The notes beneath the pieces were generated by a model. That model did no database searches and was not told the DNA's origin. It was given only the letters and a program-made list of their open reading frames with translations. The position numbers and the translations under genes were made by a program. From positions 297,929-361,928 of the forward strand of contig CAZQKK010000001.1 in NCBI GenBank assembly GCA_964593885.1: a DNA stretch of 64,000 bases, written 5' to 3'. The stretch's first letter is position 1; every line of letters begins with the position of its first letter. Positions 1-52,401 of the stretch are shown one piece after another. The stretch comes from an uncultured Candidatus Saccharibacteria bacterium (GTDB taxonomy: Bacteria; Patescibacteriota; UBA1384; CAILIB01).

Positions 1-3000
1 ATTTCACCTGGGATGCCGATCCTTCGCTCAAGCAACGGGTCTCAATGCTTGAGAATACCCTCAATAAGCAGCTCAACGATCACAGTTTTGACCTGGCTGA
101 TATCCTTAGCCAGAACCTCCCTGCCAACCAGCTTGATACCATCCTCCTCAACAGGCTGAACCTCCTCACCGTAAGACCGGTAACCAAGAAGAGTAGTGCC
201 AACATCACCAAGTTTGAGCAGCAGTACAACGATCCAGCCTACAATGGCTGGCTCTTCCTCATCCAAGACTTGAGGCAGCGCCTCGATTGTAAGCTCACTA
301 ATGGTTACTACAGGGTTAAAGACGATAAGAAAGGAATGGAGTGCGCCCCTCGCCCTGGAGCTATTGAGGTACCTGAGGACGCGAAGTACGAAATCCAGGA
401 AGCAAAGCGCATCCTGGATAAGCTCTTTAAGCAACCTTGGGCACTGGTACAGAGCATCGTGAAGAGCCTCGAAACACGCACGTACAACGATCCAAGTGGT
501 TTTGTGAACCAGAGCGCTATGTCAGCCTCCATTGCCCTCTCCAGCGTGAAGTTTGCGGTTGATGAGAACCTGAGGTTCAAGCCTGAGACCATCTACAGCA
601 CCGATCTCGTACGTAGTCTCGTTGCTCCAAACGGGAAGGGGGTAGTACCACACAGCGCCTCAGTTGAAGCTTTCTTCAAACCTGACAGTAGCGGCAAGAG
701 CCTCTTGATGCGCTCAGGTATTGAGTACGCAGCCAAGAAGTTCAGTAACGACGCCCTTGGACAAGCAACCTTTGCGGCTCAGCTCAAGACAGACTTCGCC
801 GAAGTGGTAAGGATTAAAGATGATGTCGTAGACCTCTTTGATCTCGCTGAGAAAGACGCTGATGAGTACGGCTTTGACTATGAGAGCCTCGTAGAGAAGG
901 GGCTAGCCAACGATGACTTCATCAGGATCTTCCTCTTAGACCAGGCAAATGGGGTATTTGAACGTGTTGGTAAAGAGCAAGCACTCAGGGTTATTTGGCG
1001 AAAGAGCGGTGCAGCCGCCAAGATAAAGTCTTCTGAGCAGTACCAGAGCATCCTCAGGATTGCTCGTGAGAGCGTTAAGCAGCTTGAGTTCTATAAGAGT
1101 AGGCTCGATAGAATAAAAAGTCTCTCAGATGACCTGAGTGATAGAGTTGAGAGCCTCGGTGGTGACTTGTCACTCTTTGGTAGGCAGCTCAAGAAGGTGA
1201 ATGCATCAACGGATGTTGCCAACCTAGACAGCATCGAGCAGGTGCGGAAGCTCTCCAAGCGGTACGAGCCTACCCTCACCGCGATGACCAAGACGTTGAA
1301 GAGTGCGAACAGCAACGTACGTGATATCGCCCAGATTACCTACGAGATTCTCCACCTCACCCAGGAAATTGTTGCCGGAAGAGCGTTGCCACGTGATGAG
1401 AAGTTTGACACCAGCTACGTTTCGCTCAACCGCGCTCTGGAAGCAGGGGATCCTAGTAGGGCTAAAGACGGTTGCTTTGATAAAGCCACCTTACTCAGGT
1501 CACTCACAGGTTCAGGTGACCTTGGTCAGCGAATGTTTGACTTTGCAGTTGAGACCGGAACCTGCAGACTTGAGACGGGCCTTGGGCTTCCCAAGCAGTC
1601 AATCTTCCTCTGGTACAAGCTTGGCAGCCAAGAGTTTCCACCTACCAGGACTACAACGGTAACCTACCCTGAGGTAGTAGACGTAGAGACCGGCCTCCCA
1701 CTCACCGAGGCAACCTTCACCGTTGAAGAAACCTCCATCATGCCTCCGGCTGATACCAACCTGTTTGAGAAGCAACCTGACGGCAAGCTCAAGCCACTGG
1801 TTCCCACCTGGAACAAGAATCGTTGGTCAGCGGATAACCTGAAGCTTGCGGTGGGTATTGCCGATCAGATCCAGCGTAACCGTGACACCATCGATCCGGC
1901 TCAAGTTAGCCAATGGGCAGGACAACAAACGGCAGCCACTATTAACGACCTCATTAAAAAGGGGGAGCGGGTTCTTGCCGCCACGGCACTCTCAAAACTT
2001 GCCCAGATGATTCCGGGAGTTGGTAAGTTCCTCAAGCAGTACCAGATCACTGATAAGGAGTTGGTAGCCATCTTCCAGGGTAACTTCCAACCCCTCATTG
2101 CCAAGGTAGGTGGTGGATTCATTGACCAGGCCTTCAATCTACCTGCTGGAAGTGGAGCAGATCTCATCTACCCAGAGTGTAGCACCAACGATGGGAGGCG
2201 AGCCCCCTGTAACAAAGACCCAAACAATCCTCAGACAGATCCGGATAACGTAAGAATTAGGATTATTGCCGAAATTGGTCTCCAGAAGCTTGGTCTCACC
2301 ATGCCAAAGATTCCTCGCTACTTCAGCTTTAAATCTGGAGGTAACCTTGCTGAAAACTGGGGGAATGCCGCGGTGAGCGAGTACCTGAGAATCTCTCCAA
2401 ATAGCTTTAGGGGCAAGATGGTTGGAAGTAGCTACCAAGACACTCCTCTCGTTGATGAGTGTGAACAGCACGGCATACGGTGCATGAACACCTCAGGAAA
2501 CCTTGCCCGTGCATTTGGTTTTTCTTCTACCCCAACTGCCCGCAGCTTGGAGCGAATTAGGAGCGAGATTATGTACCAGTCTGATAAGCTCCTGACCACT
2601 GATGGCTACAGTATTGCGGATAATGCTTCGTTCTACCTCCAGAAAGCCTTGGAAGACTACTATGCCGCCGCAACCTTAGGTAGAGCTAGCAACGTTGAAG
2701 ATATCACCAACAAGAGGGGTTACTGGACCGATCTCAGTGCGCCGAGTGCCGCTGACAACGCGAGGCTTCTAGCAAATGCAGACGCCGACCCACAGGGTCC
2801 TTACCAAGCTGCCCTTGAAACAATCTGGGATTCGTTTGATGGTGGTATTTTCACCGCAGAGGTAAAATCTGCAATCCGGGCAATCATCCTCAGAAATCTT
2901 CCTGACAACATTGGCCCAGGGAGGGATGCTATCAATACCCTTCTCACCCCAGAGTACATTGATGGACTAGCTAGCGTTGAAGATTTCCCACTCTCTCTCA

Positions 3001-5792
3001 CTACACCAGGTGTTGCCCACCAAGATCTCTACCTCAGCTACATTAGGATCTTCCAAAAACGGCTCACCCAACTGAATACCACCTACTCGCTTAGTGATGA
3101 CCTCTTCCAGAAGTTCCTCCAGGGAACCATTGATGCCTCAGAAATTAGCAAGAAGGTAGGTATCTCACAGACTGCAGGAGCAATTCTCGGGGAGTACCTC
3201 GACAAGTGGATTGATGAAAATGCACCTTCCTGGCTGAAACAGCTCAACGATGCCTTCAAGTACGTAACTGCTGAGCAGTGTGGTGGTAAGCAGATTGGCC
3301 TCGGGACGTTCCTTACCCAGACAATCTCGGGTTCTGACGGCTGCTTTAAAGAGGTTGGTCTCTTCAGCATGAAAGATCTCATTTACGGTACTTCGGACAA
3401 CATGAAGAAGCTGCGTCGGATGCTCTTTGAGGAGTTCCTGGGCGGTATTTTCAGTAGGGAGCTTGAGCAGAAGATTGGCTTCAGACCTGGGGCATTCCTC
3501 AGAATTGTTGACGACCCAAAGCATGCGCGCCAGATTCTCGCTACAGAGGGCGTGCTGATGGTGGCAGATAAGATATTTGGAGCCCAGAACAAGAGCAACG
3601 CATGCCAGGCAAAAACCATACCTGATGCAAACTGTAGCCAAGCGACACTTGTGTCGATTGTGAAAGAAGCCTTCATTGCCGGGTTCTGTGAGGATTCGCG
3701 GCGAAATAAGTGCGACTTCACGTTCAGTAGCTCGCGCTCCCTCGCAAAGTTTAATGAAGAAGCAGGTAAGGCAATTGATAGGCAGTTGAGGCGAATTGGT
3801 AGGGAGTACCTTGGTGTTGAGATAACCCGTAAAGACCTCGCCATCCACCATGGGGATATGCGTGGCATTGCTATGCTTGGGATTCAGCTCATTGCAAATT
3901 CGCTCAACAACGCCCTCTACAAGGGTGACCCGCGCAGTCCGATGGCAAAGTTCTTCACCACCTACTACGACGATATCCGTATCGCCATGGGGTACGACGA
4001 GCCAGCAGGATGGGTACTCGGCATGTACCAGATCAGGGGTGGCATCGACAAAATGTATGAGGATACCTGTGGTGGCGAGAAACAAAAGACAAACCCAGCC
4101 TGTGCAGACAACTACGTTTCCTTTGATGAGTACGTTGACACCATCATGGCTGAAGGGAAGTGGACTGACAGGAATGTAGCAACACACATTGCTGAAACGC
4201 GAATGGAGGAGGCAGGAAAGACTGAGGCTCGTAACTACGCCAGTAACCGCAGGGCCCAATCGCTCCTCACCATTCAGTACGCCCTCCTGGATATTGTTGC
4301 TTTCAGTAAGGACAAGAACATTCCACCAAACTTCAGTAAGCGTCTCTTGAGTGGTACCTCCTCTGATAGGGTAAACGCCCTAGGTGAGTACCTCATGGGA
4401 AGTTTAATGAAACAGGATTCAGATCTTGGTAAGTTCCTTCGGACCGCTTGTGGGAGCCAAAACACCGGCACCCAATGCTACACACTCTTCAAGGACCTCT
4501 ACAACGCTATCAAGAGCGGCAAGGATGGCATGACTGCTTTCTTCGATAGCAAGCAGGGGAACTCCTTCATTAACCTCATTGATCGGGGAATCAACAACTG
4601 GTTCAAAGATCAATTTGGAATAGCCCTCCCTGATGACACTTTCAAGGGTATCTACGTCTGGGGTATGCGAGGATTTAAGGGAACCGACTTTAACCGAGAA
4701 GGGTTCTGTGATGGGTTCACCTTGGCTGAAATGGAAGCAGCAGGGAAGAAGTGCGTTGGCCCAATTGGAGTTCCAATTGGAAGAATCCTCCAAGACTTTG
4801 GCGAGAAGACCCTAACAGATTGGGCGGACAAGAACTTTGGCTTTAAACGGGGAACTAGTGCCAAGATCGTAAAAATTGCCGAGCTCATCATTGATAAGCA
4901 GAAGCTTGCGAAGATTGCTAAGGCTAAGGGCTGGACTGACGCCCAACTTGCTACAGCAAGGGTTAAGAATGCTGTAGCCATCGCCCAGCTCATTTCAGAG
5001 GTTGTGGTAAGCCTCTTTGAGCAAGAGTTTAATGAATTTGACAGATCTCTCGGGCTTCCTCCTGGAACCACCAGTATCATAGTTGGAGCCGCCGTTACCT
5101 ACGGAGCTGCAATTGCTATGGGGGTTAGTGGCTCTGCCGCTATGGCAGCGGCTTTCGGACCCGCCTTCTTCATTGCCCTTGGATTCAACCTCCTCTTTGG
5201 AGTTACAAAGGTGGTGGTAACCAGTAGGGCAACCGGTGATGGGTACTATCCTTTCTACTCGAGTGTTAACCGTCTCGGTACTGGCCCTGCATCAAAGTGT
5301 ATTGGTAAGTCTGCTGGAATGCTTGGTGGCTGTAAGGCAGAGGAGCCGTACCACCAGGTACTCATCCACGACCCTGCTACTGGTGAGTTTGACCCCACCT
5401 TTACCCCGGTGTACCGTGCTGGCCTCAAGCAGGTTGCGCGAGGAAAGGTAACCGGGCTCCTCAAGGATCTCTTGTTAATGCCAGGTACCGATTTCATCGA
5501 GAAGTCAGGCCTTGAGCCGCAAGAAATGCGTGTCAGTCAACTATTCACTTACGGTGGGATTGGTGCTGAGTACGATCCAACTACCAATAAGGTGGTGAGC
5601 GAACTCATGAATAGGAACCTCCCGCAAAACCAGCAGTACCCAGAATGGGGCTATGGGCAACCCGAAGATAGGTGCCAAACCATTACCCCTAGCGAGGATG
5701 GCCAAACTAACGTCTGTCACAGGAAACCAGGTTGGCTCATAGGATTCTACGGTCTCCCAACACTCACGGGGGCCATTCACATCAGGTGGTAG
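1..5792 (+). CDS. Giant hypothetical protein (>1915 aa, 5'-partial: reading frame open to window start); mostly alpha-helical, C-terminal hydrophobic/TM block (..IIVGAAVTYGAAIAMGVSGSAAMAAAFGPAFFIALGFNLLFGV..) and Cys/Gly-rich tail
   Basis: Uninterrupted 5.7-kb ORF in frame 3 with no stop back to position 3; strong RBS-spaced start of next gene 15 nt downstream; no recognisable catalytic motifs. Confidence 0.6.
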   Translation, partial: FTWDADPSLKQRVSMLENTLNKQLNDHSFDLADILSQNLPANQLDTILLNRLNLLTVRPVTKKSSANITKFEQQYNDPAYNGWLFLIQDLRQRLDCKLTNGYYRVKDDKKGMECAPRPGAIEVPEDAKYEIQEAKRILDKLFKQPWALVQSIVKSLETRTYNDPSGFVNQSAMSASIALSSVKFAVDENLRFKPETIYSTDLVRSLVAPNGKGVVPHSASVEAFFKPDSSGKSLLMRSGIEYAAKKFSNDALGQATFAAQLKTDFAEVVRIKDDVVDLFDLAEKDADEYGFDYESLVEKGLANDDFIRIFLLDQANGVFERVGKEQALRVIWRKSGAAAKIKSSEQYQSILRIARESVKQLEFYKSRLDRIKSLSDDLSDRVESLGGDLSLFGRQLKKVNASTDVANLDSIEQVRKLSKRYEPTLTAMTKTLKSANSNVRDIAQITYEILHLTQEIVAGRALPRDEKFDTSYVSLNRALEAGDPSRAKDGCFDKATLLRSLTGSGDLGQRMFDFAVETGTCRLETGLGLPKQSIFLWYKLGSQEFPPTRTTTVTYPEVVDVETGLPLTEATFTVEETSIMPPADTNLFEKQPDGKLKPLVPTWNKNRWSADNLKLAVGIADQIQRNRDTIDPAQVSQWAGQQTAATINDLIKKGERVLAATALSKLAQMIPGVGKFLKQYQITDKELVAIFQGNFQPLIAKVGGGFIDQAFNLPAGSGADLIYPECSTNDGRRAPCNKDPNNPQTDPDNVRIRIIAEIGLQKLGLTMPKIPRYFSFKSGGNLAENWGNAAVSEYLRISPNSFRGKMVGSSYQDTPLVDECEQHGIRCMNTSGNLARAFGFSSTPTARSLERIRSEIMYQSDKLLTTDGYSIADNASFYLQKALEDYYAAATLGRASNVEDITNKRGYWTDLSAPSAADNARLLANADADPQGPYQAALETIWDSFDGGIFTAEVKSAIRAIILRNLPDNIGPGRDAINTLLTPEYIDGLASVEDFPLSLTTPGVAHQDLYLSYIRIFQKRLTQLNTTYSLSDDLFQKFLQGTIDASEISKKVGISQTAGAILGEYLDKWIDENAPSWLKQLNDAFKYVTAEQCGGKQIGLGTFLTQTISGSDGCFKEVGLFSMKDLIYGTSDNMKKLRRMLFEEFLGGIFSRELEQKIGFRPGAFLRIVDDPKHARQILATEGVLMVADKIFGAQNKSNACQAKTIPDANCSQATLVSIVKEAFIAGFCEDSRRNKCDFTFSSSRSLAKFNEEAGKAIDRQLRRIGREYLGVEITRKDLAIHHGDMRGIAMLGIQLIANSLNNALYKGDPRSPMAKFFTTYYDDIRIAMGYDEPAGWVLGMYQIRGGIDKMYEDTCGGEKQKTNPACADNYVSFDEYVDTIMAEGKWTDRNVATHIAETRMEEAGKTEARNYASNRRAQSLLTIQYALLDIVAFSKDKNIPPNFSKRLLSGTSSDRVNALGEYLMGSLMKQDSDLGKFLRTACGSQNTGTQCYTLFKDLYNAIKSGKDGMTAFFDSKQGNSFINLIDRGINNWFKDQFGIALPDDTFKGIYVWGMRGFKGTDFNREGFCDGFTLAEMEAAGKKCVGPIGVPIGRILQDFGEKTLTDWADKNFGFKRGTSAKIVKIAELIIDKQKLAKIAKAKGWTDAQLATARVKNAVAIAQLISEVVVSLFEQEFNEFDRSLGLPPGTTSIIVGAAVTYGAAIAMGVSGSAAMAAAFGPAFFIALGFNLLFGVTKVVVTSRATGDGYYPFYSSVNRLGTGPASKCIGKSAGMLGGCKAEEPYHQVLIHDPATGEFDPTFTPVYRAGLKQVARGKVTGLLKDLLLMPGTDFIEKSGLEPQEMRVSQLFTYGGIGAEYDPTTNKVVSELMNRNLPQNQQYPEWGYGQPEDRCQTITPSEDGQTNVCHRKPGWLIGFYGLPTLTGAIHIRW

Positions 5793-5807
5793 TGGTACAA
5801 TAGCTCT

Positions 5808-7328
5808 ATGTCCACATCACTCGACGCAACCCTCAAGCGGATCAACCGCCAAACCGAAGAACAGGCCGCTGAACAGCTTGCTGCAAATATCGGCCTCTCG
5901 TATGCCAAACTTGACGACTACCCTTTCGGCCTTGAGGCACTGGGGATGCTGCCCCTTGAGATCATCCAAGAGAAACTCTACGCACCCTACGTGAGATCAG
6001 CCTCCAAGGTCCGCTTTGCCATCGTCCACCCTGAAAACCAGCTTGTACTAGATGAGGTTAGCCTCCTAGGCCGCGAGTGGGAGCTTGAAGTTGAGCTCAC
6101 GGTAGTTTCAGCCTCAAGTTTTGAGTACCTGATTGCCAGCTACACGAAGCTCCTCCAAGAAGAGGCACAGGCCAGGCAGGCTGAATTAGAGGCAGCCCGC
6201 CAACGTGCCGACCATGACTACTTCAACAAGATAAAGAGCCTTGATGACCTGCGGAACGAAATGAATCGTGCCAGTGTCACCGATATCATTGAGGCAATCA
6301 TTGCCGCAGCCTACAACCAGGGAGCTTCAGACATCCACCTAGAACCAGGGGAGACCAGCGTACAGGTGAGGTTTAGGATTGATGGAGTGCTCCAGAAAGT
6401 TATTGAACTCCCGTTACGTCACCACCACCAGATCATCTCTCGTATCAAGATGATGGCTTCGGTTAAGCTCGATCAGAACAGTCAGAGCCAGGACGGAAGG
6501 TTCTCCATGGCAGATAAGGGGATTGAGGCAGACTTCCGTGTTTCTATCGTCCCAACCGGGTATGGGCCTGGGGTAGTTATGCGTATCTTGAAGCAGAGCA
6601 CCGAGGCACTCCACATTGAGAAGCTAGGCTTCAGTACCCACAACTTTGAGCTCATTCAGAAGAGTATTAAGCGGCCTTACGGTCTGATTCTCGTAACCGG
6701 TCCAACAGGCTCTGGAAAATCCACAACGCTCTACTCAATTCTTGCAGCCCTTAACACCTCAGAGAAAAAGATTCTCACCCTTGAGGATCCAATTGAGTAT
6801 CGTTTAGCTGGCATCCAACAGAGCCAGGTAGACCCTGAAAAGGGGTATGGGTTTGCTGAAGGGTTGAAGGGAGCGCTCCGGCAAGACCCAGACATCGTAA
6901 TGGTAGGAGAGATTAGGGATCCAGAAACTGCCACAATCGCTCTCAATGCGTCTCTTACTGGTCACTTGGTACTTTCTACCCTCCACACCAACGACGCCGT
7001 TACTGCCCACACACGCTTCTTGGAGCTTGGGGTTGCACCTTTCCTACTCAGTGGGAGTATCCAGGCAATTATCGCCCAAAGGCTCGTTCGTAAACTTGTC
7101 CCAGGAAGCGACCCTGCAAACCCAGAGTACAAGGGGCGAATTATTATCTCAGAAGTCCTCTGCCCAAACCAGCAGTTTGAACAAGCGGTACTCCAAAAGG
7201 TAGACCAGGAAAGCTTACGTAGCCTGGCAGTTGCTGGGGGGATGGTTCCCATGGTTCAAGACGGCCTCGAGAAGGTCAAGCAGGGCCTCACCACCGAGCA
7301 AGAGGTCTACCGCGTTACGGCAGAGTAA
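5808..7328 (+). CDS. pilB: Type IV pilus / type II secretion assembly ATPase (GspE/PilB family)
   Basis: Walker A LILVTGPTGSGKSTT, Walker B/Asp box DPDIVMVGEIRD, His box LVLSTLHTNDA, T2SSE_N-like N-terminus. Confidence 0.85.
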   Translation: MSTSLDATLKRINRQTEEQAAEQLAANIGLSYAKLDDYPFGLEALGMLPLEIIQEKLYAPYVRSASKVRFAIVHPENQLVLDEVSLLGREWELEVELTVVSASSFEYLIASYTKLLQEEAQARQAELEAARQRADHDYFNKIKSLDDLRNEMNRASVTDIIEAIIAAAYNQGASDIHLEPGETSVQVRFRIDGVLQKVIELPLRHHHQIISRIKMMASVKLDQNSQSQDGRFSMADKGIEADFRVSIVPTGYGPGVVMRILKQSTEALHIEKLGFSTHNFELIQKSIKRPYGLILVTGPTGSGKSTTLYSILAALNTSEKKILTLEDPIEYRLAGIQQSQVDPEKGYGFAEGLKGALRQDPDIVMVGEIRDPETATIALNASLTGHLVLSTLHTNDAVTAHTRFLELGVAPFLLSGSIQAIIAQRLVRKLVPGSDPANPEYKGRIIISEVLCPNQQFEQAVLQKVDQESLRSLAVAGGMVPMVQDGLEKVKQGLTTEQEVYRVTAE

Positions 7329-8694
7329 GCTTCGCAAGCTCTTCTCGTACTACTACTCTGTCGTCCCACTTATCTGTTTTTCCCTGCAGAATAATACTCT
7401 GCTCTGCCCCCTTACCGGTAATGAGGACTACATCACCTTTTGTTGCGAGCGAAAGAGCTTTGCGGATACCCTCGCGCCTGTCGGGGATGGCAAAGAGGTT
7501 GGTGCCACGCACAGCTCCCGCTCTTTCAGCCGCAATGGCAATATCCTCAATAATGGGGAGGGGATCGTCGTCGTAGGAGTCTACGTTTGAAACAATGGTG
7601 TAATCTGCTTTTTCTGCGGAAAGCCTTCCCATAACTGGGCGCTTTTTTGTATCCCTACCACCACCCTCTGCGCCCAATAGGAAGATGACCTTTCCTTTTG
7701 ATCCAGCCAGCAGCCTTCCAGCTTCAAGAGCACCAGTAACACTTGCCTCTTCGTGGGCGTAATCAACGAACACAGCAAAATCTTTGGCTTCGGTAATTCG
7801 CTCCATCCTTCCAGGAATAACCGTAAGTTCTTTGAGACCCCTTGAGATTTGTTCCGGAGTGGCCTTGAGGAGCTTTGCTAGGGCAATAGCCGGCAGGGCG
7901 TTGTAGACGTTGAAGGTACCTGGAATGGTTGTCTCGTACGATTCTTCTCCCAGCATGAAAGATACCCCTGAACCTGTTGATTGCAGGTTTGATGCCTTTG
8001 TATCAGCGCTCTTTGTAATGCCAAAAGTTAGTTTTTGGTCTGCTTCAAATGAGAGGTAGTAGTCTGCGTGCTCACTATCGCTATTAGCGATAATAGTTTT
8101 AGGAAACACCTTGCCTCGGAGTTTCTTTTTGGGGGAACTCTTAAGTGTTGCGAATAGCTTTCCTTTAGCCTGTTTGTATTTTTCGAAGCTACCTCCGTGC
8201 GAGGGGAGGTGTTCAGGGGTGAGGTTTGTAAATACCGCACAATCGTAGGAGATGCCAATGTGGCGGTACTGCTTGAGGCCTTCAGAGGTGGTTTCAACAA
8301 CGCAGATTTCGCAGCCAGCTTTTCCCATCTGTTTGAGGAGATCCTGAATGGCAGACCTTCCTGGCATGGTCATGTGGTACTTATTGAGGAGCTGTTCATC
8401 ACCAATTCTGATGTTTGCAGTACTGATAATGCCTGTTTTATACCCTGAAGCAGTAAGTACCGACCAGATGTAGTTTGCTGCCGATGTTTTACCTTTAGTG
8501 CCAGTAACCCCAATAATAATCATATCTTTGGCGGGGAAACCGTACTTGAAGGCTGTGGCGTACGATCTACCTGCGTGGTAACCGAGAATCAACTGTTCTG
8601 GGAGGAGTTTGCGGAGGAGTTTTTTCATGTAGTCATGATAGCAAACTAGGGGCGCGTACCAATTATGAGTGGCAGACGCATTGTTGTGTTCCAA
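7315..8694 (-). CDS. Mur ligase family protein (MurE/MurT-like); alternative start at internal Met (8628)
   Basis: P-loop GVTGTKGKTSAA (GTNGKT-type), Mur ligase middle-domain motif TNLTPEHLPSHGGSFEKYKQAKGKLF; converges on pilB with 14-nt overlap. Confidence 0.6.
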   Translation of the reverse strand: MEHNNASATHNWYAPLVCYHDYMKKLLRKLLPEQLILGYHAGRSYATAFKYGFPAKDMIIIGVTGTKGKTSAANYIWSVLTASGYKTGIISTANIRIGDEQLLNKYHMTMPGRSAIQDLLKQMGKAGCEICVVETTSEGLKQYRHIGISYDCAVFTNLTPEHLPSHGGSFEKYKQAKGKLFATLKSSPKKKLRGKVFPKTIIANSDSEHADYYLSFEADQKLTFGITKSADTKASNLQSTGSGVSFMLGEESYETTIPGTFNVYNALPAIALAKLLKATPEQISRGLKELTVIPGRMERITEAKDFAVFVDYAHEEASVTGALEAGRLLAGSKGKVIFLLGAEGGGRDTKKRPVMGRLSAEKADYTIVSNVDSYDDDPLPIIEDIAIAAERAGAVRGTNLFAIPDRREGIRKALSLATKGDVVLITGKGAEQSIILQGKTDKWDDRVVVREELAKLTLP

Positions 8695-9665: not shown

Positions 9666-10514
9666 CTACGACTTTTTCCTAACCTTAACCGTTACGCCAT
9701 CCTTACCTTTTGCGGTTTTCTCCTCCATAATTTCTTTTTTCATCACTGGGGAGTGCTTAAAGCCTGGGTGCTTCTTATCTGCTTCCTCAACCACCTTTGT
9801 TAACCCGGTGAGAGCAAGATCCTGCTTATTTACCGACATCTGTTGAACTATCGAGAATGAGGTACTCACAATCCAGTAGAGTGCCACACCCGCTGGGAAC
9901 CTCCCCGCAATGAAGAGGGTGAGGAGAGGGAAGATGTAAGCCATTGTCTTCTGGCTGGCGACTGTGGGGTCTAGCTCGCCGTTTTTAGCAGGCTTCACCT
10001 TTGCAAGGGTGAGGCGCATCTGCCAAAACTGGAGTGCTGCGGCAATTCCTGGAAGTACAAAGGTTGTGTCTGGCTTTAAGAGATCGATACCAAAGAACAT
10101 AGTCTGCACACTCTCTGGGCGTGGCAGCCAGCTGTAGAGGTGAGGAGAATTACCCCCAATCCCATGGAGAATTGCGTAGTAGAGGATAAAGAGAATTGGC
10201 AGCTGAATCAGTGCAGTAATGCAGCTTGAGAAGGGATTAATACCGTTCTTCTTGTAGAGCTCCATCTGGGCAACTGAGAGACCCTGTCTATCTGTACCGT
10301 ACTCATCTTTCAATTCTTGGAGGAGGGGCGCCAATTCCATGGTACGGCGCTGAGACTCTGCCTGTTTCTTTGTGGGGACGTAGAGGGCAAACCTAACTAC
10401 AAGGGTAAGGAAAATAATTCCCCAGGCCACGTGGTGACCAGGAACTGCCCACACAAAAAAGGTGAGGAGGTTGAGGAATGGGTAGTAGAGAATGAATTTG
10501 ATCAGTTCAATCAT
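9666..10514 (-). CDS. yidC: Membrane protein insertase YidC/Oxa1 (short form)
   Basis: MELYKKNGINPFSSCITALIQLPILF motif, 5 TM segments, upstream of yidD-rnpA-rpmH. Confidence 0.85.
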   Translation of the reverse strand: MIELIKFILYYPFLNLLTFFVWAVPGHHVAWGIIFLTLVVRFALYVPTKKQAESQRRTMELAPLLQELKDEYGTDRQGLSVAQMELYKKNGINPFSSCITALIQLPILFILYYAILHGIGGNSPHLYSWLPRPESVQTMFFGIDLLKPDTTFVLPGIAAALQFWQMRLTLAKVKPAKNGELDPTVASQKTMAYIFPLLTLFIAGRFPAGVALYWIVSTSFSIVQQMSVNKQDLALTGLTKVVEEADKKHPGFKHSPVMKKEIMEEKTAKGKDGVTVKVRKKS

Positions 10515-10543
10515 ACCTGGCTATCCTACCAGAAGTTTTAGTC

Positions 10544-10777
10544 TTACGTTAGAGGGTCAGAGCCACCTTTTGACCATGGGTTACAGCGAAATACTCGCCA
10601 CAGCGCCTTTAACCCACCTTTAACCACCCCATACTTCTCTACCGCCTGGTAGCCATACTCACTACAGCTTGGGTAGTACCTACAGTAGCCATATGGGTAC
10701 TGCGCCTTCCTTGGACTGTGGTCAGGAGACCAGTACTTCTGGTACCACCGTATAACCCTCAAAACTACTTGTTTCAC
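10544..10777 (-). CDS. yidD: Membrane protein insertion efficiency factor YidD
   Basis: YPSCSEYGYQAVEKYGVVKG...GGSDP signature; position between yidC and rnpA. Confidence 0.8.
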   Translation of the reverse strand: MKQVVLRVIRWYQKYWSPDHSPRKAQYPYGYCRYYPSCSEYGYQAVEKYGVVKGGLKALWRVFRCNPWSKGGSDPLT

Positions 10778-11100
10778 TTTTGGGGACTCAGTTTTTTAAA
10801 GGCTTGGGAAAGTGAGTTTTTCAGTTCTGTGTAACTCAAAGTCTCCACCCCAGAATAACCTCTTACCACCACGAAACTCTGAGGGAGGGTGATAGTGTTA
10901 AGGATGGCTCGTATCTGTCGTTTCACCCGGTTTCGTTCTGTAGCCAACTTAGAAACCTTCTTATCAACAATTACCGTTATTTTAAGTTCACCCGTGGCAA
11001 TACTGTGGATGCGTATGGGGCCATTACGAATAACCTCACCGCGTCTAAACACAGTGAGGATGTCATTCGTGGTATGTAAGCGCTGCCTCTTTGGGAACAC
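10774..11100 (-). CDS. rnpA: Ribonuclease P protein component
   Basis: Starts MFPKRQRL; basic 108-aa protein immediately downstream of rpmH; 4-nt overlap with yidD. Confidence 0.8.
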   Translation of the reverse strand: MFPKRQRLHTTNDILTVFRRGEVIRNGPIRIHSIATGELKITVIVDKKVSKLATERNRVKRQIRAILNTITLPQSFVVVRGYSGVETLSYTELKNSLSQAFKKLSPQK

Positions 11101-11110
11101 AGCTTCTTAC

Positions 11111-11260
11111 TTAGTACTTTCGCTTATCGTCTGAGACGGTGAGCTTCTTGCGGCCTTTGAGTCTACGAGCTTTCAACACATTAATTGAGTTGAGCATTCG
11201 TGCACGAAAACCGTGAGTACGAACCCGCTTGCGCTTGTTGGGGTTGTAGGTTGGTTGCAT
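11111..11260 (-). CDS. rpmH: 50S ribosomal protein L34
   Basis: Manual translation [49 protein letters not shown] (not in ORF track, <60 aa). Confidence 0.85.
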
Positions 11261-11347
11261 GGTTCATATAGTAGCCTAGTTTTCAGGTTTAAACAAGTAC
11301 CCACAGTAGGGGCTGTGGAATACGTCAACCCTCGTAATCTTTACACT

Positions 11348-11356
11348 TGTGGATAA
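11348..11356. promoter_or_regulatory. Perfect DnaA box (TGTGGATAA = rc TTATCCACA) in rpmH-dnaA intergenic region
   Basis: 9/9 match to consensus seen in sequence, 21 nt upstream of dnaA ATG. Confidence 0.6.
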
Positions 11357-11376
11357 CTTTGTGTAGGCTAAGAACT

Positions 11377-12771
11377 ATGGCTGAACTCAACCTCCAGGAA
11401 CTGTGGCAGAAGGTAACCACCCCACTACTAGATACGTTTGATGCACGGGTTTTTAATCCCATCGTCAAACCAGGAAGTATTATTTCGCTCTCTGTAGAGG
11501 AGTTGAGAATTTCTGTGGATAACCCTATGGGAAAACAGTTCTTCAGGAAGTACTGCGAAACACGCGTTCTAGAGAATATTGAGAAGGAGACAGGTATTTC
11601 TCCAGCAAAAATTACCTATGTCGTTCGCCCCCTCAATAAAGAGAGGATGAAACCAACTATAGAAACAAGTGAACCTCAACTCTTTCGCCCATCAAAGGAG
11701 CGTGGGTACACAGGAGAGCTTGTGGGCAACTCTCAAATCACCTCAAACCTCAATACAAAATATACTTTCAGTAATTTCATTACGGGCACAAAAAATAGGC
11801 TAGCCTTTGCTGCTGCCCAAGCAGTTGCCGAGAGTCCAGGAAATCTCTACAACCCCCTCTACCTCTATGGTGGAGTTGGACTTGGGAAAACCCACATCAT
11901 GCAGGCGGTTGGTAACGCAATTATTGAGCGAGATCCTAACGCAAAAGTACTCTACGTTGCATGTGAGAGTTTCCTTAATGAATTTGTGAGCTCCATTAAG
12001 AAGGGGAGTCCAGACTCATTTAAGAAAAAGTACCGCAACATTGATGTATTCCTTGTTGATGATATCCAGTTTATTGGGGGGAAGGATGGTGTTCAGGAAG
12101 AGTTCTTCCACACATTTAATGAACTACATCAAGCAGGAAAACAGATTGTGATGACCTCTGATAAGAGGCCAAGTGAAATTAATGGATTAGAAGAAAGGCT
12201 TGCGAGTAGGTTTAGTATGGGAATGGTTACTGATATCCAACTCCCAGACCAATCCACACGTCTAGCCATCCTTCAAACAAAGTGTCAAGAAAAAGGAATT
12301 TCACTACCTGAAAACATTCTCCGTTTTGTGGCGGATGAAGTTGAGACAAATATTCGTGAGCTAGAGGGTGCACTAACCACCCTTGTAGCCCATCTCCATG
12401 CCCAACAAGGGGATCTAAGTATTGAAACCACCCGCAAGGTACTCCAGGGGATTATTTCGCAACACACAACACCACGGAAGAGTAAGGTAGATGTGCTCTG
12501 TGAGATTATCTGCACACAGTATGGGGTTCAGAAAGAAGCTGTACTTAGCTCAGCGCGCCAGAGAGAAATTGTGAGACCGCGTCAGGTACTGATGTACCTA
12601 CTGAAACATGAGGTTGGAATGACGTACCCAATGATTGGGAGAGAAATTGGTGGGAGAGACCATACCACAATCATGCATGGTGTTGAAAAGATTACTACTG
12701 AACTAAAGAAAAACCCTGAACTACTTGAAGAATTACAAGGAATCAAACTTTCGTTCTATGATTCTAAATAA
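11377..12771 (+). CDS. dnaA: Chromosomal replication initiator DnaA (start taken at MAELNLQELW; track start 11347 overlaps the DnaA box)
   Basis: AAA+ Walker A GGVGLGKTHIM, Walker B VFLVDDIQF, C-terminal DNA-binding domain GREIGGRDHTTIMHG. Confidence 0.9.
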   Translation: MAELNLQELWQKVTTPLLDTFDARVFNPIVKPGSIISLSVEELRISVDNPMGKQFFRKYCETRVLENIEKETGISPAKITYVVRPLNKERMKPTIETSEPQLFRPSKERGYTGELVGNSQITSNLNTKYTFSNFITGTKNRLAFAAAQAVAESPGNLYNPLYLYGGVGLGKTHIMQAVGNAIIERDPNAKVLYVACESFLNEFVSSIKKGSPDSFKKKYRNIDVFLVDDIQFIGGKDGVQEEFFHTFNELHQAGKQIVMTSDKRPSEINGLEERLASRFSMGMVTDIQLPDQSTRLAILQTKCQEKGISLPENILRFVADEVETNIRELEGALTTLVAHLHAQQGDLSIETTRKVLQGIISQHTTPRKSKVDVLCEIICTQYGVQKEAVLSSARQREIVRPRQVLMYLLKHEVGMTYPMIGREIGGRDHTTIMHGVEKITTELKKNPELLEELQGIKLSFYDSK

Positions 12772-13038
12772 TTGTAATAGTAGTAATAAGGGTTGGGGAA
12801 AAGTGGATAACTCCATAAAAATCTTTCCTATAAACAAAAAAGGCTACCTAAGTGCTTGGGGAAAACTTTGGGAAAGAATGGGGAGAACTAGTAGTAGTCC
12901 ACAACAACCACAAGGCTATGGGGAAACATTGTGGAAAACAAAAGAATATCCACAAAAACATCCACAACCACACACTAGATATAGAATAAGTTATTCACAT
13001 GTTTTCCCCACGTTATCCACACACAGAACGGGAGGTAT
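12772..13038. promoter_or_regulatory. Putative oriC: AT-rich dnaA-dnaN intergenic region with cluster of DnaA boxes (12802-12810 AGTGGATAA; 12946-12954 ATATCCACA; 12958-12966 ACATCCACA; 12991-12999 TTATTCACA; 13013-13021 TTATCCACA perfect)
   Basis: Boxes read directly; canonical position between dnaA and dnaN. Confidence 0.65.
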
Positions 13039-14151
13039 ATGAAATTTAGCTGCAACCGAGATATTCTTGATAGGCAACTCCAGTTTGTGAGTAGGGTGGT
13101 AACTACCCGCACGAGCATGCCAATTCTCTCCAACCTCCTCTTAGAGACAGATAAGGATTTTATTAGGATTAGTGCTACAGATTTAGAGCTTGCAATTGCA
13201 ACAACTGTTCCCGCCACAATTGAGCAGCAGGGAAGTTTTACAATACCTGCAAAGCTATTCCAAGACTTTGTCCACCAAAACCCAGATAGTGAGGTTGGAT
13301 TTCTCCTTACATCCTCAGAACTAACCTGTACTAGTGAGCAGGTTACCGCAACGATTCCTGGTATTGATCCTGAAGAGTACCCACCACTTCCAGTGGTTAA
13401 GGAAACTACTGAAGTAATCCTTAACCTACAAGAGGTGGTTGAGGCACTGAAGCAGGTGGTTATTGCGTGCGCCCAAGACCAAGGTAGGCCGGTTCTTACG
13501 GGGGTACTCATAAAATTTTCACCAAGCGGTACAACTTTTGCAGCCACTGATAGCTTTAGGTTGGTTGAGAGACACCTACCTTCAGCCGTTGTCTCAGAAG
13601 AGAGGGAGGTGCTCATTCCTATGAGAACTATTCAGGAACTGATCAGAATTGCTGGGCAACTATCTAACGAGAGTCAAATCACAATACTCTTGGCTGAAAA
13701 CCAACTCGTGATACAGGTTGGGGGAGTTGAAATGTACTCTAGGCTACTGATTGGCAACTTCCCAAAGTACCAATCAATTATTCCAAAAGATTTTCAGGCG
13801 AGACTCCATGTTTCGGTGGCTGAATTTAGCCAGGCACTCCGCCTAGCTACGGTATTCTCTACAAGTGGTATTACTAATGTAATTATTGATGTAGGTGAGG
13901 ATGGAAAGGTGACTCTCTCAAACTACGCAACTCAGAGGGGTGGGGCTAAGTACATCCTTAAAACTCAACTAGAGCCAGACTATAAGCCAGTGAAGGCTGC
14001 ATTCAACACGCGCTACCTACTAGATGCTCTAAGTGTAACTGGGGAGAGTGAAGTAGAGCTCCAGATTAGCGGTAAGACATCACCCCTCGTGGTATCAGTT
14101 GGCTCACCAGATTATACCCAGCTGGTAATGCCTATTCGTCTCGATGCCTAA
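13039..14151 (+). CDS. dnaN: DNA polymerase III beta subunit (sliding clamp)
   Basis: MKFSCNRDILDRQLQFV start typical of DnaN; ~370 aa; follows dnaA. Confidence 0.85.
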   Translation: MKFSCNRDILDRQLQFVSRVVTTRTSMPILSNLLLETDKDFIRISATDLELAIATTVPATIEQQGSFTIPAKLFQDFVHQNPDSEVGFLLTSSELTCTSEQVTATIPGIDPEEYPPLPVVKETTEVILNLQEVVEALKQVVIACAQDQGRPVLTGVLIKFSPSGTTFAATDSFRLVERHLPSAVVSEEREVLIPMRTIQELIRIAGQLSNESQITILLAENQLVIQVGGVEMYSRLLIGNFPKYQSIIPKDFQARLHVSVAEFSQALRLATVFSTSGITNVIIDVGEDGKVTLSNYATQRGGAKYILKTQLEPDYKPVKAAFNTRYLLDALSVTGESEVELQISGKTSPLVVSVGSPDYTQLVMPIRLDA

Positions 14152-15219
14152 ATGGCAAAACTACTCCTTCCAGAAATCAGCCTAGAGTCTTTTAGGAACC
14201 ACGAAAAGGAAAGCTTTTCACTGGGAGAGGTGACGGTAATTCTAGGAAATAACGGGTCGGGGAAAACTGCGATACTAGAAGCAATCTCCCTTCTCTCAGT
14301 TGCTGATTCATGGAAGACAGATAGAGATAGTGAGGTTGTGCAGTGGGAGAAACCCTTCTGTAGGGTGGTAGGGGGAAGTAGTGAAGTGGTGATTCAGGTG
14401 AGCCCCGGTTTAAAGCGGTACCGGATAGATGGGGTAAGTAAGCGCTTGGGGGATGTACTTGGAAGGATGCCAACGGTACTATTCCAACCTGACGACAGTA
14501 TGGTGATCCATGGCTCACCAGCAGGGAGGCGAGCCCTCGTAGATAGGCTGCTCTCACAGGTAGTACCTGGCTACGCGAAGAACCTCCAACTCCTCCAGAA
14601 GGTGCTGAAACAGCGAAATAAACTCCTTCGCCAAGTACAGGAAGGTGCTGCTTCACTTGAGGAGCTACCGTACTGGGATGGTGAGTTAATGAAACTCATT
14701 CTCCAGATCCAACCCGCGCGGGAAAAGGTGCTTAATGAAATAACCCCAACAATCACCGAGTTTTTTCATGAACTCATACCTGAGATTGGTCAGTTGGTAG
14801 TTCACTACCAAAAATCACCTAATACACCAGGAGAACTACCAGAGGACTTCTTTGAGCACCAGCGCCACAAGGAGGTTGCTGCGGGGATTACCTTGTATGG
14901 ACCCCACCGCGAAGACATTACACTTACCCTGGACGGACACTCCGCAGACGCCACCCTCTCGCGCGGACAAACGAGAGCCCTCGTGTTGGCGATAAAGCTT
15001 GCCGAGCTTACCTACATTGAGAAGGTGTCAGAGGTAAAACCAATACTCCTCCTTGATGATATTTTTGCTGAGTTTGACCAAGAGCGAAGAGCTAAAATAT
15101 TTTCACTCATTACCAAGTACCAAACGGTAATGACAGTAACAGACCTAGCTGGGGTAGAGGAGAACCTACCTAGAGAGGTGAAAATCATCCAGCTTGAGCC
15201 ACAAAAAAACACCCCATAA
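14152..15219 (+). CDS. recF: DNA replication and repair protein RecF
   Basis: Walker A GNNGSGKTAILEAI, Walker B LLLDDIFAEFD; dnaA-dnaN-recF synteny. Confidence 0.85.
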   Translation: MAKLLLPEISLESFRNHEKESFSLGEVTVILGNNGSGKTAILEAISLLSVADSWKTDRDSEVVQWEKPFCRVVGGSSEVVIQVSPGLKRYRIDGVSKRLGDVLGRMPTVLFQPDDSMVIHGSPAGRRALVDRLLSQVVPGYAKNLQLLQKVLKQRNKLLRQVQEGAASLEELPYWDGELMKLILQIQPAREKVLNEITPTITEFFHELIPEIGQLVVHYQKSPNTPGELPEDFFEHQRHKEVAAGITLYGPHREDITLTLDGHSADATLSRGQTRALVLAIKLAELTYIEKVSEVKPILLLDDIFAEFDQERRAKIFSLITKYQTVMTVTDLAGVEENLPREVKIIQLEPQKNTP

Positions 15220-23441: not shown

Positions 23442-23826
23442 CTCGGTCTAGGTGGGGGTAGAGAACCTTACCATCCTGTGTGGAAGCAAACTCGTTTACC
23501 CTCACAATAGAGAGATGGGGAAAAGCTGTGGCTAGTGCCTGTTCCAACTGTGTGGTAACGCGGGAAGACCTTTCGCTCTGACTTGTTTCGCCCCCATCAG
23601 CGGAAAGTGGCACTCCAATTACGAGAGTTGCGACACCGTGAGAGCTGATGAGTTGAGAAACGCTGGCCAGGAGGCCATGGATGTGGGGGAGTTCCCACGC
23701 AATAGTTTGGAGGGGCTGTACGTCCAGTCCATTTGGTGAGAGTGCTGCCCCAGTTCGCTTCAACCCGATATCAAGCCCCAGAAGGGGGCTACTCATAGCT
23801 TGTCTTGATGCTGATACTGCCAGCAA
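23383..23826 (-). CDS. ruvX: Putative pre-16S rRNA nuclease / Holliday junction resolvase-like YqgF (RuvX)
   Basis: LLGLDIGLKRTGAALS N-terminus (RNase H-like); classic yqgF-mltG adjacency. Confidence 0.8.
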   Translation of the reverse strand: MLAVSASRQAMSSPLLGLDIGLKRTGAALSPNGLDVQPLQTIAWELPHIHGLLASVSQLISSHGVATLVIGVPLSADGGETSQSERSSRVTTQLEQALATAFPHLSIVRVNEFASTQDGKVLYPHLDRDAAAACTILTSYLESIHHE

Positions 23827-51598: not shown

Positions 51599-52246
51599 AT
51601 GAAGTGGATTCTGACGTTCCTCGTAGTTGTGCTGGGTTTCCAGCGAGTTGATAGCGCGCCGTTTGTGGCTGAGGTGTTTGCGAAACCTGCCAGGTACTCG
51701 TTTGCCGATGTGAAGTTTCACGTGAGCTACGTGCCCGGGGGAGTTCCTAGGGCAAAGCTTGCGGCGAAGTACCCGGAGGTGAGTGGGTTTCTCGACGCCA
51801 TTCCAGGTGGGTACTTCTCCCCGGAGAGTAACCCAATAAGGAACGTAGACTACACGCTCAAAGGCTCCCAGTTGCTGGTTCCGTACCTTTCAGAGAGGCA
51901 GCGCCCAGTGATTCTCTTCTCTGAAAGGGGAGCAAGGATTGCCTGGCCTGAAAAGGGTAAAGGGGGATTTACCCGATCTGTAGACGAGACCGAGGGATTG
52001 GCCGGTGACAACCACTGCCAGAAGCCTGGCAAATCGCTCCTGCGAACCATTGTGGGCGTGACCAAGTCAACCCTGACGGTGTACCTGGTGAGGGGAACTG
52101 AGCATCAGTGCCACAAGTTCATGGCGACGGAGCAGTACCAGCACAAGCAGTACCTGTTCATGGATGGGGGCGATTCAGTGCTCCCAACCACCCCCATGCC
52201 CTCGCATATCGTCATCTTCAGGAAGACGAGACAGGCATTTCAGTAA
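51599..52246 (+). CDS. Hypothetical secreted protein (signal peptide MKWILTFLVVVLGFQRVDSA)
   Basis: Signal peptide; FMDGGDS motif loosely like the LDGGPS motif of 8646-9410 protein. Confidence 0.45.
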   Translation: MKWILTFLVVVLGFQRVDSAPFVAEVFAKPARYSFADVKFHVSYVPGGVPRAKLAAKYPEVSGFLDAIPGGYFSPESNPIRNVDYTLKGSQLLVPYLSERQRPVILFSERGARIAWPEKGKGGFTRSVDETEGLAGDNHCQKPGKSLLRTIVGVTKSTLTVYLVRGTEHQCHKFMATEQYQHKQYLFMDGGDSVLPTTPMPSHIVIFRKTRQAFQ

Positions 52247-52270
52247 GCACCCGCCTGGGTGCTTTTTTTG
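52246..52270 (+). terminator. Rho-independent terminator
   Basis: agcacccgcctgggtgcttttttt. Confidence 0.6.
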
Positions 52271-52326
52271 AACCTGGTTTTCTGGTACAGTAGCGGAAGC
52301 GAAAAAGGCAGAGACAAACAGCGTAT

Positions 52327-52401
52327 TGCCCGGTGGCCAAGTGGTAAGGCGCCTGATTCTGGATCAGGTTACCGTAGGTTCGAATCCTACCCGGGCAGCC
52401 A
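52327..52401 (+). tRNA. tRNA-Gln (anticodon CTG)
   Basis: TGCCCGG/CCGGGCA acceptor, anticodon arm CCTGA-TTCTGGA-TCAGG, T-arm GTAGGTTCGAATCCTAC, encoded CCA. Confidence 0.8.

Follow-up and report, generated by a model that had tools for sequence, protein, structure and literature searches.

The first genes of a 64-kb stretch of DNA from an uncultured Candidatus Saccharibacteria bacterium (contig CAZQKK010000001.1, positions 297,929 to 361,928 of the forward strand) encode a giant protein and a secretion ATPase, and the question is to which machine the two belong. The whole stretch of 64,000 nucleotides (nt) is called the window here. A first-pass annotation made from its letters alone assigned the DNA to a small-genome bacterium, which agrees with its place in the Patescibacteria. 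It also tied the giant protein to type IV pilus machinery, as a possible adhesin or secretion substrate. The tie to type IV pili was not borne out. Homologous loci carry a VirB4-type type IV secretion system (T4SS) operon and no pilus genes, and the giant protein is very probably a conserved component of that T4SS cluster.

Reading frame and conservation of the giant gene

The giant open reading frame (ORF) occupies bases 3-5792 of the plus strand. It is free of stops from base 3 to the TAG at 5790-5792, giving 1929 codons. Since the 14 codons ahead of the first ATG (base 45) are also stop-free, the frame is open to the 5' edge of the window, as had been proposed when a single ORF of more than 1915 amino acids (aa) running past the edge was called. 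A word-indexed search covering 5.8 billion protein clusters found full-length homologues of 2848-3158 aa. The closest of these, P0001, is 2914 aa long with an identity of 91%, and the window copy aligned to approximately residues 986-2914 of it, so that about 985 N-terminal residues lie outside the window. The window ORF is the C-terminal two-thirds of a structural envelope protein of about 2900 aa. The taxon labels of its relatives were Candidatus Berkelbacteria, Patescibacteria group and Paceibacterota.

Purifying selection was evident along the whole length of the gene. Against the P0001 gene the ratio of nonsynonymous to synonymous substitution rates (dN/dS) was 0.044 at a dS of 1.26, and it ranged from 0.03 to 0.08 in each 300-codon block. 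The values for comparison were 0.036 for DnaN and 0.019 for the downstream ATPase. Collinear full-length homologues were present in many independent assemblies (ENA, JGI, Logan and NCBI). The sole point in favour of an artefact (chimeric assembly, pseudogene or spurious long ORF) is the 5' cut at the window edge. Such an artefact is refuted by the collinear homologues from independent assemblies and by the low dN/dS at this dS, and its probability is close to zero.

Type IV secretion genes in homologous loci

Homologous loci were obtained by exact protein look-up of nine family members, by a species-representative genome scan, which contributed one locus, and from a metagenome scan, which contributed 11. 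Loci were also looked up from the ATPase side. Neighbourhoods of 20 kb were used, and there were 23 homologous loci in all.

VirB4 was encoded no more than 10 kb upstream of the giant in 17 of the 23 loci (L001-L005, L007, L008 and the distant L010, L011, L013-L015 and L017-L021). The remaining six do not have enough upstream sequence, and no counter-example to the linkage was found among loci with sufficient flank. A TrsD/TraC-like protein was present in all 17 VirB4-bearing loci and PrgI/VirB3 in 16 of them. The families PF12666 (PrgI) and PF26593 (TraC-like) were annotated in L001-L005, L008 and L010. PF18895 (T4SS_pilin) was annotated in L002, L004, L008 and L023, and it matched in L001 at E = 8.3e-5. 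The same T4SS genes were supported by tblastn in L007, L011, L013-L015 and L017-L021. The TraC-like protein of PF26593 is presumably the TrsD-type protein of an earlier survey (PMC12102498).

In the closest clade the operon begins with PrgI, followed by the TraC-like protein (PF26593), a VirB4 of ~598 aa (families DUF87/AAA_10/P-loop_TraG), a VirB2-like pilin of ~140 aa, genes of ~419, ~660 and ~400 aa, the giant and the 505-510-aa ATPase. Intergenic gaps in L001 ranged from -4 to 20 nt. The ~419-, ~660- and ~400-aa genes encode single-pass proteins, the first with beta-propeller hints and the second with Peptidase_C39_2 in relatives. Across homologous loci, one or more cell-wall hydrolases are encoded between the beta-propeller protein and the giant. 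One tightly packed operon is common to L001, L002, L003 and L008, and most of it was backed by tblastn in L007, an NCBI metagenome-assembled genome labelled Candidatus Berkelbacteria. The genes yidC, rnpA, dnaA, dnaN and recF come next in L001, L002, L007 and L008; the flank of L003 reaches yidC only. In L004 and L005 the pilin and a ~417-aa gene lie between the giant and the ATPase, and in L006 the ATPase is two genes upstream of the giant. In these loci gene order is shuffled and the gene set is kept.

The distant L010 has the order TrbL_3, 451-aa gene, PrgI, TraC-like, VirB4, beta-propeller, glucosaminidase, M23 peptidase and giant, with recF, dnaN and dnaA ~2 kb past the giant. In nine of the 11 metagenome-scan loci the giant came after VirB4 and the TraC-like protein, with PrgI in eight and a beta-propeller homologue in seven. 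In those nine loci the giant also lay beside recF-dnaN-dnaA where the flank allowed. Placement of the cluster near the origin, described below for the window, was also seen in L001-L004, L007-L010, L014 and L017-L023; dnaA, dnaN, recF and yidC were no more than 10 kb away in the window and in most loci.

No polytopic VirB6/TrbL protein was seen in the L001 operon, in which no protein has more than three hydrophobic segments, and TrbL_3 was found in the distant L010 only. The membrane proteins of L001 are PrgI (two transmembrane (TM) helices), the pilin and the three single-pass proteins. No relaxase or type IV coupling protein Pfam family was annotated in any neighbourhood. PilC/GspF, PilM/N/O or GspL/M, type IV (pseudo)pilins and prepilin peptidase were absent from the 20-kb neighbourhoods of all 23 loci. 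The 64-kb window itself was also without pilC/gspF, type IV pilin or prepilin peptidase genes, and the first-pass annotation had been right in seeing no pilC or pilin there. As for pilM, the one gene of FtsA/PilM fold (25645-26922, minus strand) matched FtsA (1.9e-15) better than PilM_2 (1.5e-6). The cluster to which the giant belongs is a T4SS of the Patescibacteria type, Gram-positive-like and proximal to the chromosomal replication origin (oriC).

Anatomy of the giant protein

The features of the giant gene in the window are as follows.

3..5792 (+), giant envelope protein, C-terminal 1929 codons and stop (open frame, homologues, dN/dS, Cys pairs)
1581..1601 (+), internal motif LGLPKQS, a copy of LGLP.[GNQ][ST] (motif count)
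5049..5069 (+), LGLPPGT directly ahead of the hairpin (LGL[VP]PG[ST] precedes the first hydrophobic helix superfamily-wide)
5076..5219 (+), hydrophobic helical hairpin, residues 1692-1739, two helices with a short Gly/Pro turn (Kyte-Doolittle segments)
5220..5789 (+), Gly/Pro-rich C-terminal tail of 190 aa ending AIHIRW, with two Cys pairs (composition, conservation)
5235..5258 (+), GDGYYPFY right after the second membrane helix (invariant in four family alignments, A1-A4)

Full-length members have a hydrophobic signal-anchor of Sec type at approximately residues 15-37. This is followed by an ectodomain of ~2600 aa, the C-terminal hairpin and a tail of ~190 aa. The hydrophobic or TM block noticed at the C-terminus in the first pass is the two-helix hairpin. 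The hairpin module runs from an amphipathic helix through LGL[VP]PG[ST], helix 1, a Pro/Gly turn and helix 2 (...NLFGVYKV) to [CT]ADGYYP. In 84 family members the uncharged block at the hairpin had a median length of 42 residues and a conserved P/G turn; the length fits a helical hairpin. The motif LGLP.[GNQ][ST] was found in 2-3 copies per giant at conserved positions, compared to ~0.02 expected in shuffles, and one copy always immediately precedes the membrane hairpin. Its recurrence may mark a repeated helical module.

The 24 Cys of the window part form 12 consecutive pairs. Partners are 7-30 residues apart and pairs are separated by 18-377 residues, a pattern which none of 200,000 random placements reproduced. 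Five pairs were invariant across nine homologues. Such pairing is the mark of an extracytoplasmic protein with local disulfides. The tail had been described as Cys/Gly-rich, which is roughly right; it contains 12.6% Gly, 7.9% Pro and four Cys. Family-wide the number of Cys in the tail is 0, 2 or 4 and never odd, and for this reason the tail is placed on the same outer side as the ectodomain. Both parts are predicted to face outward. Distant classes also retain the terminal ...H[IVL]RW.

The protein had been described as mostly alpha-helical. AlphaFold2 models of two tiles, built from alignments of 8-9 sequences, were all-alpha (~60% helix and 4% strand in the central tile), which is in line with that description at low confidence (pLDDT 59-61, pTM 0.31-0.38). 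A Foldseek search of both tiles against PDB gave no fold assignment, the best E-values being 0.4 and 1.3. Pfam, NCBIfam and PHROGs gave zero matches for the window part of the giant and for the N-terminal third of the L001 protein, and the earlier remark that catalytic motifs are absent stands. Twenty diverse members of the superfamily had zero Pfam families. Tape-measure families of PHROGs gave no match to the window protein, the L001 N-terminal part or P0031.

RHS/YD repeats and toxin domains were not found by Pfam or NCBIfam, the C-terminus is the most conserved region and the next gene encodes the ATPase. An RHS or polymorphic toxin, the second case named in the first pass as contrary to its proposal, is thus unlikely to be what the ORF encodes; repeats, a toxin domain and an immunity-like gene were all not found. 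No adhesin domain was detected in the giant, and its C-terminus is the hairpin with a 190-aa domain ending in HIRW, not an LPXTG-TM-basic arrangement. Compared to the five or more TM helices of VirB6 proteins, the giant has one N-terminal segment and a two-helix hairpin, and so falls short of VirB6/TrbL.

The downstream ATPase

The giant gene is followed by a short spacer and the ATPase gene.

5793..5807 (+), intercistronic spacer of 15 nt (identical in L001 and L002; 12-37 nt in other loci)
5808..7328 (+), GspE/PilB-family ATPase of 506 aa (PF00437, motifs)
6699-6725, Walker A of the ATPase
6780-6797, Asp box of the ATPase
6885-6920, Walker B of the ATPase
6957-6989, His box of the ATPase

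The motifs read GPTGSGKST, LEDPIE, DPDIVMVGEIRD and TGHLVLSTLHT, respectively, and all are intact. PF00437 (T2SSE) matched residues 153-502 with E = 2.8e-110. The N1 domain (PF05157, MshEN) was borderline at residues 29-113 (23.6 bits against a cut-off of 23.1), and alignments to PilB structures in PDB begin at residue 15-24. The best solved relatives were GspE, PilB and PilF at ~1e-92. The first-pass annotation had called the protein a canonical PilB. Membership of the GspE/PilB family was confirmed by the PF00437 match, but "canonical" does not apply. Scores were below the TIGRFAM equivalog cut-offs for GspE (TIGR02533, 447.4 against 630.25 bits) and PilB (TIGR02538, 442 against 675.65), and the four-cysteine (Cys4) zinc subdomain is missing. 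Alignments to GspE and PilB break off near residue 434, at the start of the zinc subdomain of those proteins. As the only Cys of the ATPase is at 452, it has no CxxC...CxxC zinc site. VirB11 models scored below cut-off (TIGR02788, 39 against 249.95; PRK13851, 30 against 461; PRK13900, 22 against 389) and VirB11 was not among the PDB matches at 1e-20.

The 15-nt gap reported in the first pass is the spacer ahead of the ATG at 5808. Translational coupling of the giant and the ATPase had also been suggested and is plausible from the arrangement of the genes; in the L008 homologue the giant stop and the ATPase start overlap as TGATG.

A homology search from the window ATPase gave 7977 matches, the best 120 of which were listed. 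Among the matches listed, an orthologous group of ~70 clusters with at least 53% identity and 501-515 aa was present, and past this group the identity falls to ~44% (generic Patescibacteria PilB/GspE). The cluster-linked ATPases were 505-510 aa in nine loci and 501 and 506 aa in L022 and L023. They had 52-97% identity to the window copy and 0-2 Cys. In L007 the ATPase was better conserved than DnaN (60% compared to 49% identity).

The giant and the Cys4-less ATPase were in one cluster in all 11 loci of the window clade and were directly adjacent in eight. The first-pass annotation had named conserved adjacency in related genomes as a check on its proposal, and the two genes proved to be linked throughout the clade, also when approached from the ATPase side. 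The two most distant ATPase members looked up on long contigs (53% and 59% identity) had a giant as the next gene upstream, 12-16 nt away. These giants, P0031 and P0039 (one of 2345 and one of 2315 aa), had been found independently by the HMMER scan described below. Ahead of them lie genes for a hydrolase, a beta-propeller homologue and a VirB2-like pilin, with yidC, rnpA and dnaA close by. The ATPase belongs to a dedicated Cys4-less subfamily of the PilB family which always accompanies the giant in the window clade.

In the distant group (L009, L010, L014 and L017-L019) the nearest T2SSE gene encodes a different protein with ~40% identity to the window ATPase. It is 548-551 aa long in L009 and L010, and the copies of L014 and L017-L019 are 57-65% identical to that of L009, which has the zinc-site residues C426/C429/C475/C478. 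No pilC was found beside the gene in L009. In these lineages no ATPase gene comes after the giant. The Cys4 PilB/GspE gene directly follows yidC, though in L010 jag/R3H intervenes, and oriC separates it from the T4SS cluster (L009:16301-17947, L010:27988-28868, L014:24747-26390, L017:25573-27204, L018:26763-28190 and L019:24551-26194). It may be a functional partner of the cluster or a case of conserved synteny only.

Larger T2SSE proteins of 700-880 aa were also observed in Paceibacterota, Moranbacteria and other Patescibacteria (P0233, P0237-P0243, P0245, P0247 and P0270). They had a high score at ~71-75% query coverage with many extra P-loop matches, and may be extended or fused secretion ATPases.

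Breadth of the superfamily

A profile of the C-terminal 1199 residues was used in a HMMER scan of 1.84 billion representative proteins. The superfamily comprised 184 representative clusters at E <= 1e-3 and 129 at E <= 1e-10. Among the best 150 of the 184 matches approximately four-fifths measured 1400-3280 aa, and the long proteins matched at their extreme C-terminus. Three features were counted in 132 long members.

N-terminal hydrophobic segment, 100 of 132
Hydrophobic segment 130-230 residues ahead of the C-terminus, 122 of 132
[AG]DG[YFW][YFW]P right behind the C-terminal hydrophobic segment, 82 of 132

The best conserved part of the superfamily was the hairpin with its flanks (LGLPPGT...GDGYYPFY). 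A subclass of ~2300 aa was homologous from end to end, with a common N-terminal WDAPK.D.R.L.TL.YLVTP...GGAGRE and a terminal ...H[ILV]RW. In the N-terminal domain this motif is followed by H..GQAVDISEID or SAH.YD...AVDI.EID depending on the subgroup, which is similar to the zinc ligands of VanY/M15 (LAS) peptidases. The sites lie outside the window (L022:3398-4420; L014/L017-L019/L021:9911-10900; L001:10451-11500). In the window clade the putative M15 ligands are substituted (SSYY...VMIDQID). A VanY match with E = 0.18 in one of 11 members was not significant.

Proposed role and alternative explanations

Given conserved membership of the operon, the architecture of the protein and the dedicated ATPase subfamily, the giant probably serves the T4SS as a module that spans the envelope or contacts the host. 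The ATPase probably supplies an additional motor comparable to VirB11. The giant would be exported by Sec, and its hairpin would hold it in the epibiont membrane beside the VirB3/VirB4 translocon. There it would form the part of the T4SS that crosses the envelope or contacts the host, a role comparable to that of PrgB-type surface adhesins in monoderm T4SSs or of the outer-membrane core in diderms. The co-transcribed PilB-like hexamer would be an extra cytoplasmic motor that acts as VirB11 does, for example in pilin extraction or in assembly of a pilus or channel, and would not be a type IV pilus motor. A specific role as adhesin or stalk is a more tentative suggestion, which has somewhat less than an even chance. 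A bolder version is doubtful. It would join a VirB4/VirB3/VirB2-pilin core, a recruited ATPase of the pilus and type II secretion system (T2SS) class, now without its zinc subdomain, and a hairpin-anchored, disulfide-stapled, all-alpha conduit or docking stalk of ~2900 aa from a new fold family into one hybrid nanomachine. The epibiont would touch its host and exchange material through the stalk, and the giant would be a core subunit of an essential T4SS, which is equally doubtful.

Several points limit the case for the envelope-module role. VirB4 is not encoded in the window, and membership of the operon is taken from the 91%-identical homologue and other homologues. Southlakia has an essential T4SS cluster with neither giant nor ATPase, so the giant is not universally required. 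The ATPase keeps a GspE/PilB-type N1 domain, and the usual partners of that type, GspL or PilM, are not in the operon. A further PilB, belonging to a type IV pilus, may or may not be present in these genomes. The outward topology of the tail is a sequence prediction.

A type IV pilus, with the ATPase as its PilB extension motor and the giant as pilus adhesin or pilus-dependent substrate, is very unlikely here. The ATPase is unambiguously of the GspE/PilB family with a T2SSE_N/MshEN-type N-terminus and intact motifs, there is good documentation of type IV pili among Patescibacteria (PMC10633639, PMC12857230) and pilus genes may lie elsewhere in the genome. Neither the 64-kb window nor the 23 loci contained pilC/gspF, pilM/N/O, a type IV pilin or a prepilin peptidase, however, and the neighbours are VirB4, VirB3, TrsD and a VirB2-like pilin. 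The ATPase also lacks the Cys4 subdomain and forms an orthologous group separate from the Cys4 PilB near yidC in related lineages. Low probability is likewise given to the giant as a T4SS substrate which the host cell would receive as an effector or polymorphic toxin. Protein export was proposed for the relaxase-less Southlakia T4SS (PMC10633639), and the operon here also has no relaxase or coupling protein. The protein is very large, its conserved extreme C-terminus (...HIRW) could be a recognition signal and its hydrophobic hairpin could insert into a target membrane. Delivery as a substrate is nevertheless made unlikely by the Sec-type signal-anchor at the N-terminus, the conserved hairpin, the disulfide-like Cys pairs throughout the protein and the uniform purifying selection. 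A polymorphic toxin would have a variable C-terminus, but that of the giant is the most conserved region. RHS/YD repeats and toxin domains were not found, and no small immunity-like gene is present behind the giant. The first-pass proposal of an adhesin or a secretion substrate is thus retained in part; the giant is probably an envelope or surface protein.

Replacement of VirB6/TrbL, or of a PilC-like platform, by the hairpin and its flanks is quite unlikely. The L001 operon has no polytopic VirB6-like protein, the hairpin and flanks are the most conserved part of the superfamily and "extended VirB6" proteins with large hydrophilic domains are known from other T4SSs (PMC12857230). The giant, however, has two membrane helices besides the signal-anchor compared to five or more in VirB6, and genomes of the window clade may have a VirB6 gene at another place. 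In L010 a 982-aa TrbL_3/VirB6-like gene coexists with the giant, which does not therefore replace VirB6 there. As both ends are predicted to be outside, there would be no cytoplasmic domain for docking of the ATPase. It is highly improbable that the giant is a cell-wall enzyme or tape measure whose N-terminal domain is a peptidoglycan peptidase of the LAS/M15 type. H..GQAVDISEID and SAH.YD...AVDI.EID resemble the VanY/M15 zinc-ligand signature and a weak VanY match was obtained (E = 0.18). The giant is always flanked by hydrolase genes, and a 1114-aa protein beside VirB4 in Southlakia has a Hedgehog/DD-peptidase fold. Against this, the PDB profile search and hhalign with the M15_4 hydrolase of the cluster itself were empty, the VanY match is not significant and the ligands are substituted in the window clade. 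PHROGs gave no tape-measure match, and a peptidase domain would account for less than 10% of the protein.

Other genes of the window

The ATPase gene is followed by a convergent murE, a phosphodiester glycosidase gene, tRNA-Ser, yidC, dnaA, dnaN and recF. The 3' ends of the ATPase gene and murE (7315-8694, minus strand) overlap by 14 nt (7315-7328), which leaves no space for a terminator between them. The replication genes are arranged as follows.

9666..15219, replication-origin region (Pfam and NCBIfam)
9666-10514 (-), yidC
11347-12771 (+), dnaA
13039-14151 (+), dnaN
14152-15219 (+), recF

The probable oriC consists of the yidC-dnaA gap (10515-11346, 832 bp) and the dnaA-dnaN gap (12772-13038, 267 bp), in a stretch poor in guanine-cytosine (GC), with a content of 0.43-0.46. 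In relatives, rnpA and rpmH lie between yidC and dnaA. The other ~50 kb of the window carry housekeeping genes (among others RNase J, UDG, PBP2, MreBC, MltG, AlaRS, GreA, LysRS, SerRS, SecA, lactate permease and DnaE). The FtsA/PilM-fold gene overlaps by 4 nt with a downstream ORF of 619 aa (23789-25648, minus strand) that had no Pfam match, and mreB-mreC-PBP2 are nearby. Three ORFs without a Pfam match (215, 604 and 218 aa) surround tRNA-Gln (52327-52401) at 51599-55456. This region is the GC minimum of the right half of the window (0.45-0.48 compared to ~0.52) and may be a small island.

Significance

Few machines have been shown to be essential to Patescibacteria living as epibionts, and the T4SS is one of them (transposon sequencing of Southlakia, PMC10633639). 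What it transports, and how a pilin-bearing monoderm T4SS reaches the host cell, are questions to which the giant may be relevant. The Patescibacteria T4SS itself has already been published. Two conserved and apparently undescribed partners are added provisionally here, namely a superfamily of giant hairpin-anchored envelope proteins, encoded at the end of the cluster, and, in one large clade, a PilB-family ATPase without the zinc site. The giant gene and a PilB/GspE ATPase in the cluster are not mentioned in PMC10633639, PMC12102498 or PMC12857230. In the part of the T4SS survey supplements that was accessible (PMC12102498), no T2SSE/PF00437 near virB4 was found. A full-text literature search for giant proteins together with the Patescibacteria T4SS returned nothing closer; its coverage was incomplete and "undescribed" is used provisionally.

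If the giant is the extracellular part of the T4SS, it would be an obvious target for cryo-electron tomography and for work on host range and host specificity. Cooperation of a PilB-type motor with VirB4 would, if true, be a new case of module mixing among secretion-ATPase systems. Orthologues of the ATPase carry the database names "type IV pilus assembly protein PilB" or "GspE", and these labels will mislead pilus and T2SS inventories of candidate phyla radiation (CPR) genomes.

Comparison with known systems

The ATPase is similar to solved PilB/GspE proteins (PDB 4KSS, 3JC8 and 5TSG) at ~1e-92, with N1, N2 and C-terminal ATPase domains in common. It differs from them in the missing zinc subdomain, in scores below the TIGR02533 and TIGR02538 cut-offs and in having VirB4-cluster genes as neighbours instead of PilC/GspF or PilM/GspL. 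With VirB11 it shares the PF00437 superfamily, a hexameric cytoplasmic motor and a place in a T4SS operon with VirB4. It is not an orthologue of VirB11, whose models score far below cut-off, and VirB11 is without a GspE-type N1 domain. Monoderm T4SSs are usually without VirB11 (PMC12102498).

PrgB, the aggregation substance of pCF10, and the "extended VirB6" proteins are likewise large extracytoplasmic products of T4SS operons that aid contact or extend the channel. The giant has no sequence or domain similarity to either and no LPXTG-type anchor was seen in it; it is hairpin-anchored, all-alpha and 2-3 times larger. PrgB-like adhesins were not detected in the survey of Patescibacteria T4SSs, in which many virB4 neighbours are unannotated (PMC12102498).

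Multi-thousand-residue, membrane-associated proteins of host-dependent bacteria have been described in Vampirococcus lugosii (PMC8080830) and Omnitrophota (bioRxiv 10.1101/2023.11.21.568195). Such giants of CPR and ultrasmall bacteria were proposed to serve in host attachment and contain PKD, integrin, fibronectin and WD40 domains (PMC8080830; bioRxiv 10.1101/2023.11.21.568195). Those of V. lugosii and Omnitrophota have not been reported in a fixed VirB4 operon, whereas the family described here keeps its place in the genome and is without known domains. The Pam pilus and the Vampirococcus giant proteins were also checked and are unrelated systems.

The Patescibacteria clade of VirB4 is MPF-FATA-related, widespread and origin-proximal, with VirB2-like pilins and no relaxase (PMC12102498), and a matching picture is given in a 2025 review (PMC12857230). 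In Southlakia the T4SS cluster SEML1_0006-0019 adjoins dnaA-dnaN-recF, is essential for growth on the host and includes pilins with no relaxase or coupling protein (PMC10633639). The cluster of the giant is similar in being chromosomal and next to dnaA/dnaN/recF and in containing VirB4, PrgI/VirB3, a TrsD-like protein, VirB2-like pilin(s) and hydrolases right after virB4. Both have no relaxase or coupling protein in the cluster and both are from monoderms with Gram-positive-like ancestry. Southlakia has a largest protein of 1114 aa, no T2SSE ATPase, two VirB6-like proteins of ~1000 aa and a six-gene pilin array. The operon of the window clade, in contrast, encodes one pilin and lacks VirB6, and it includes the hairpin-anchored protein of ~2900 aa and a dedicated PilB-like ATPase.

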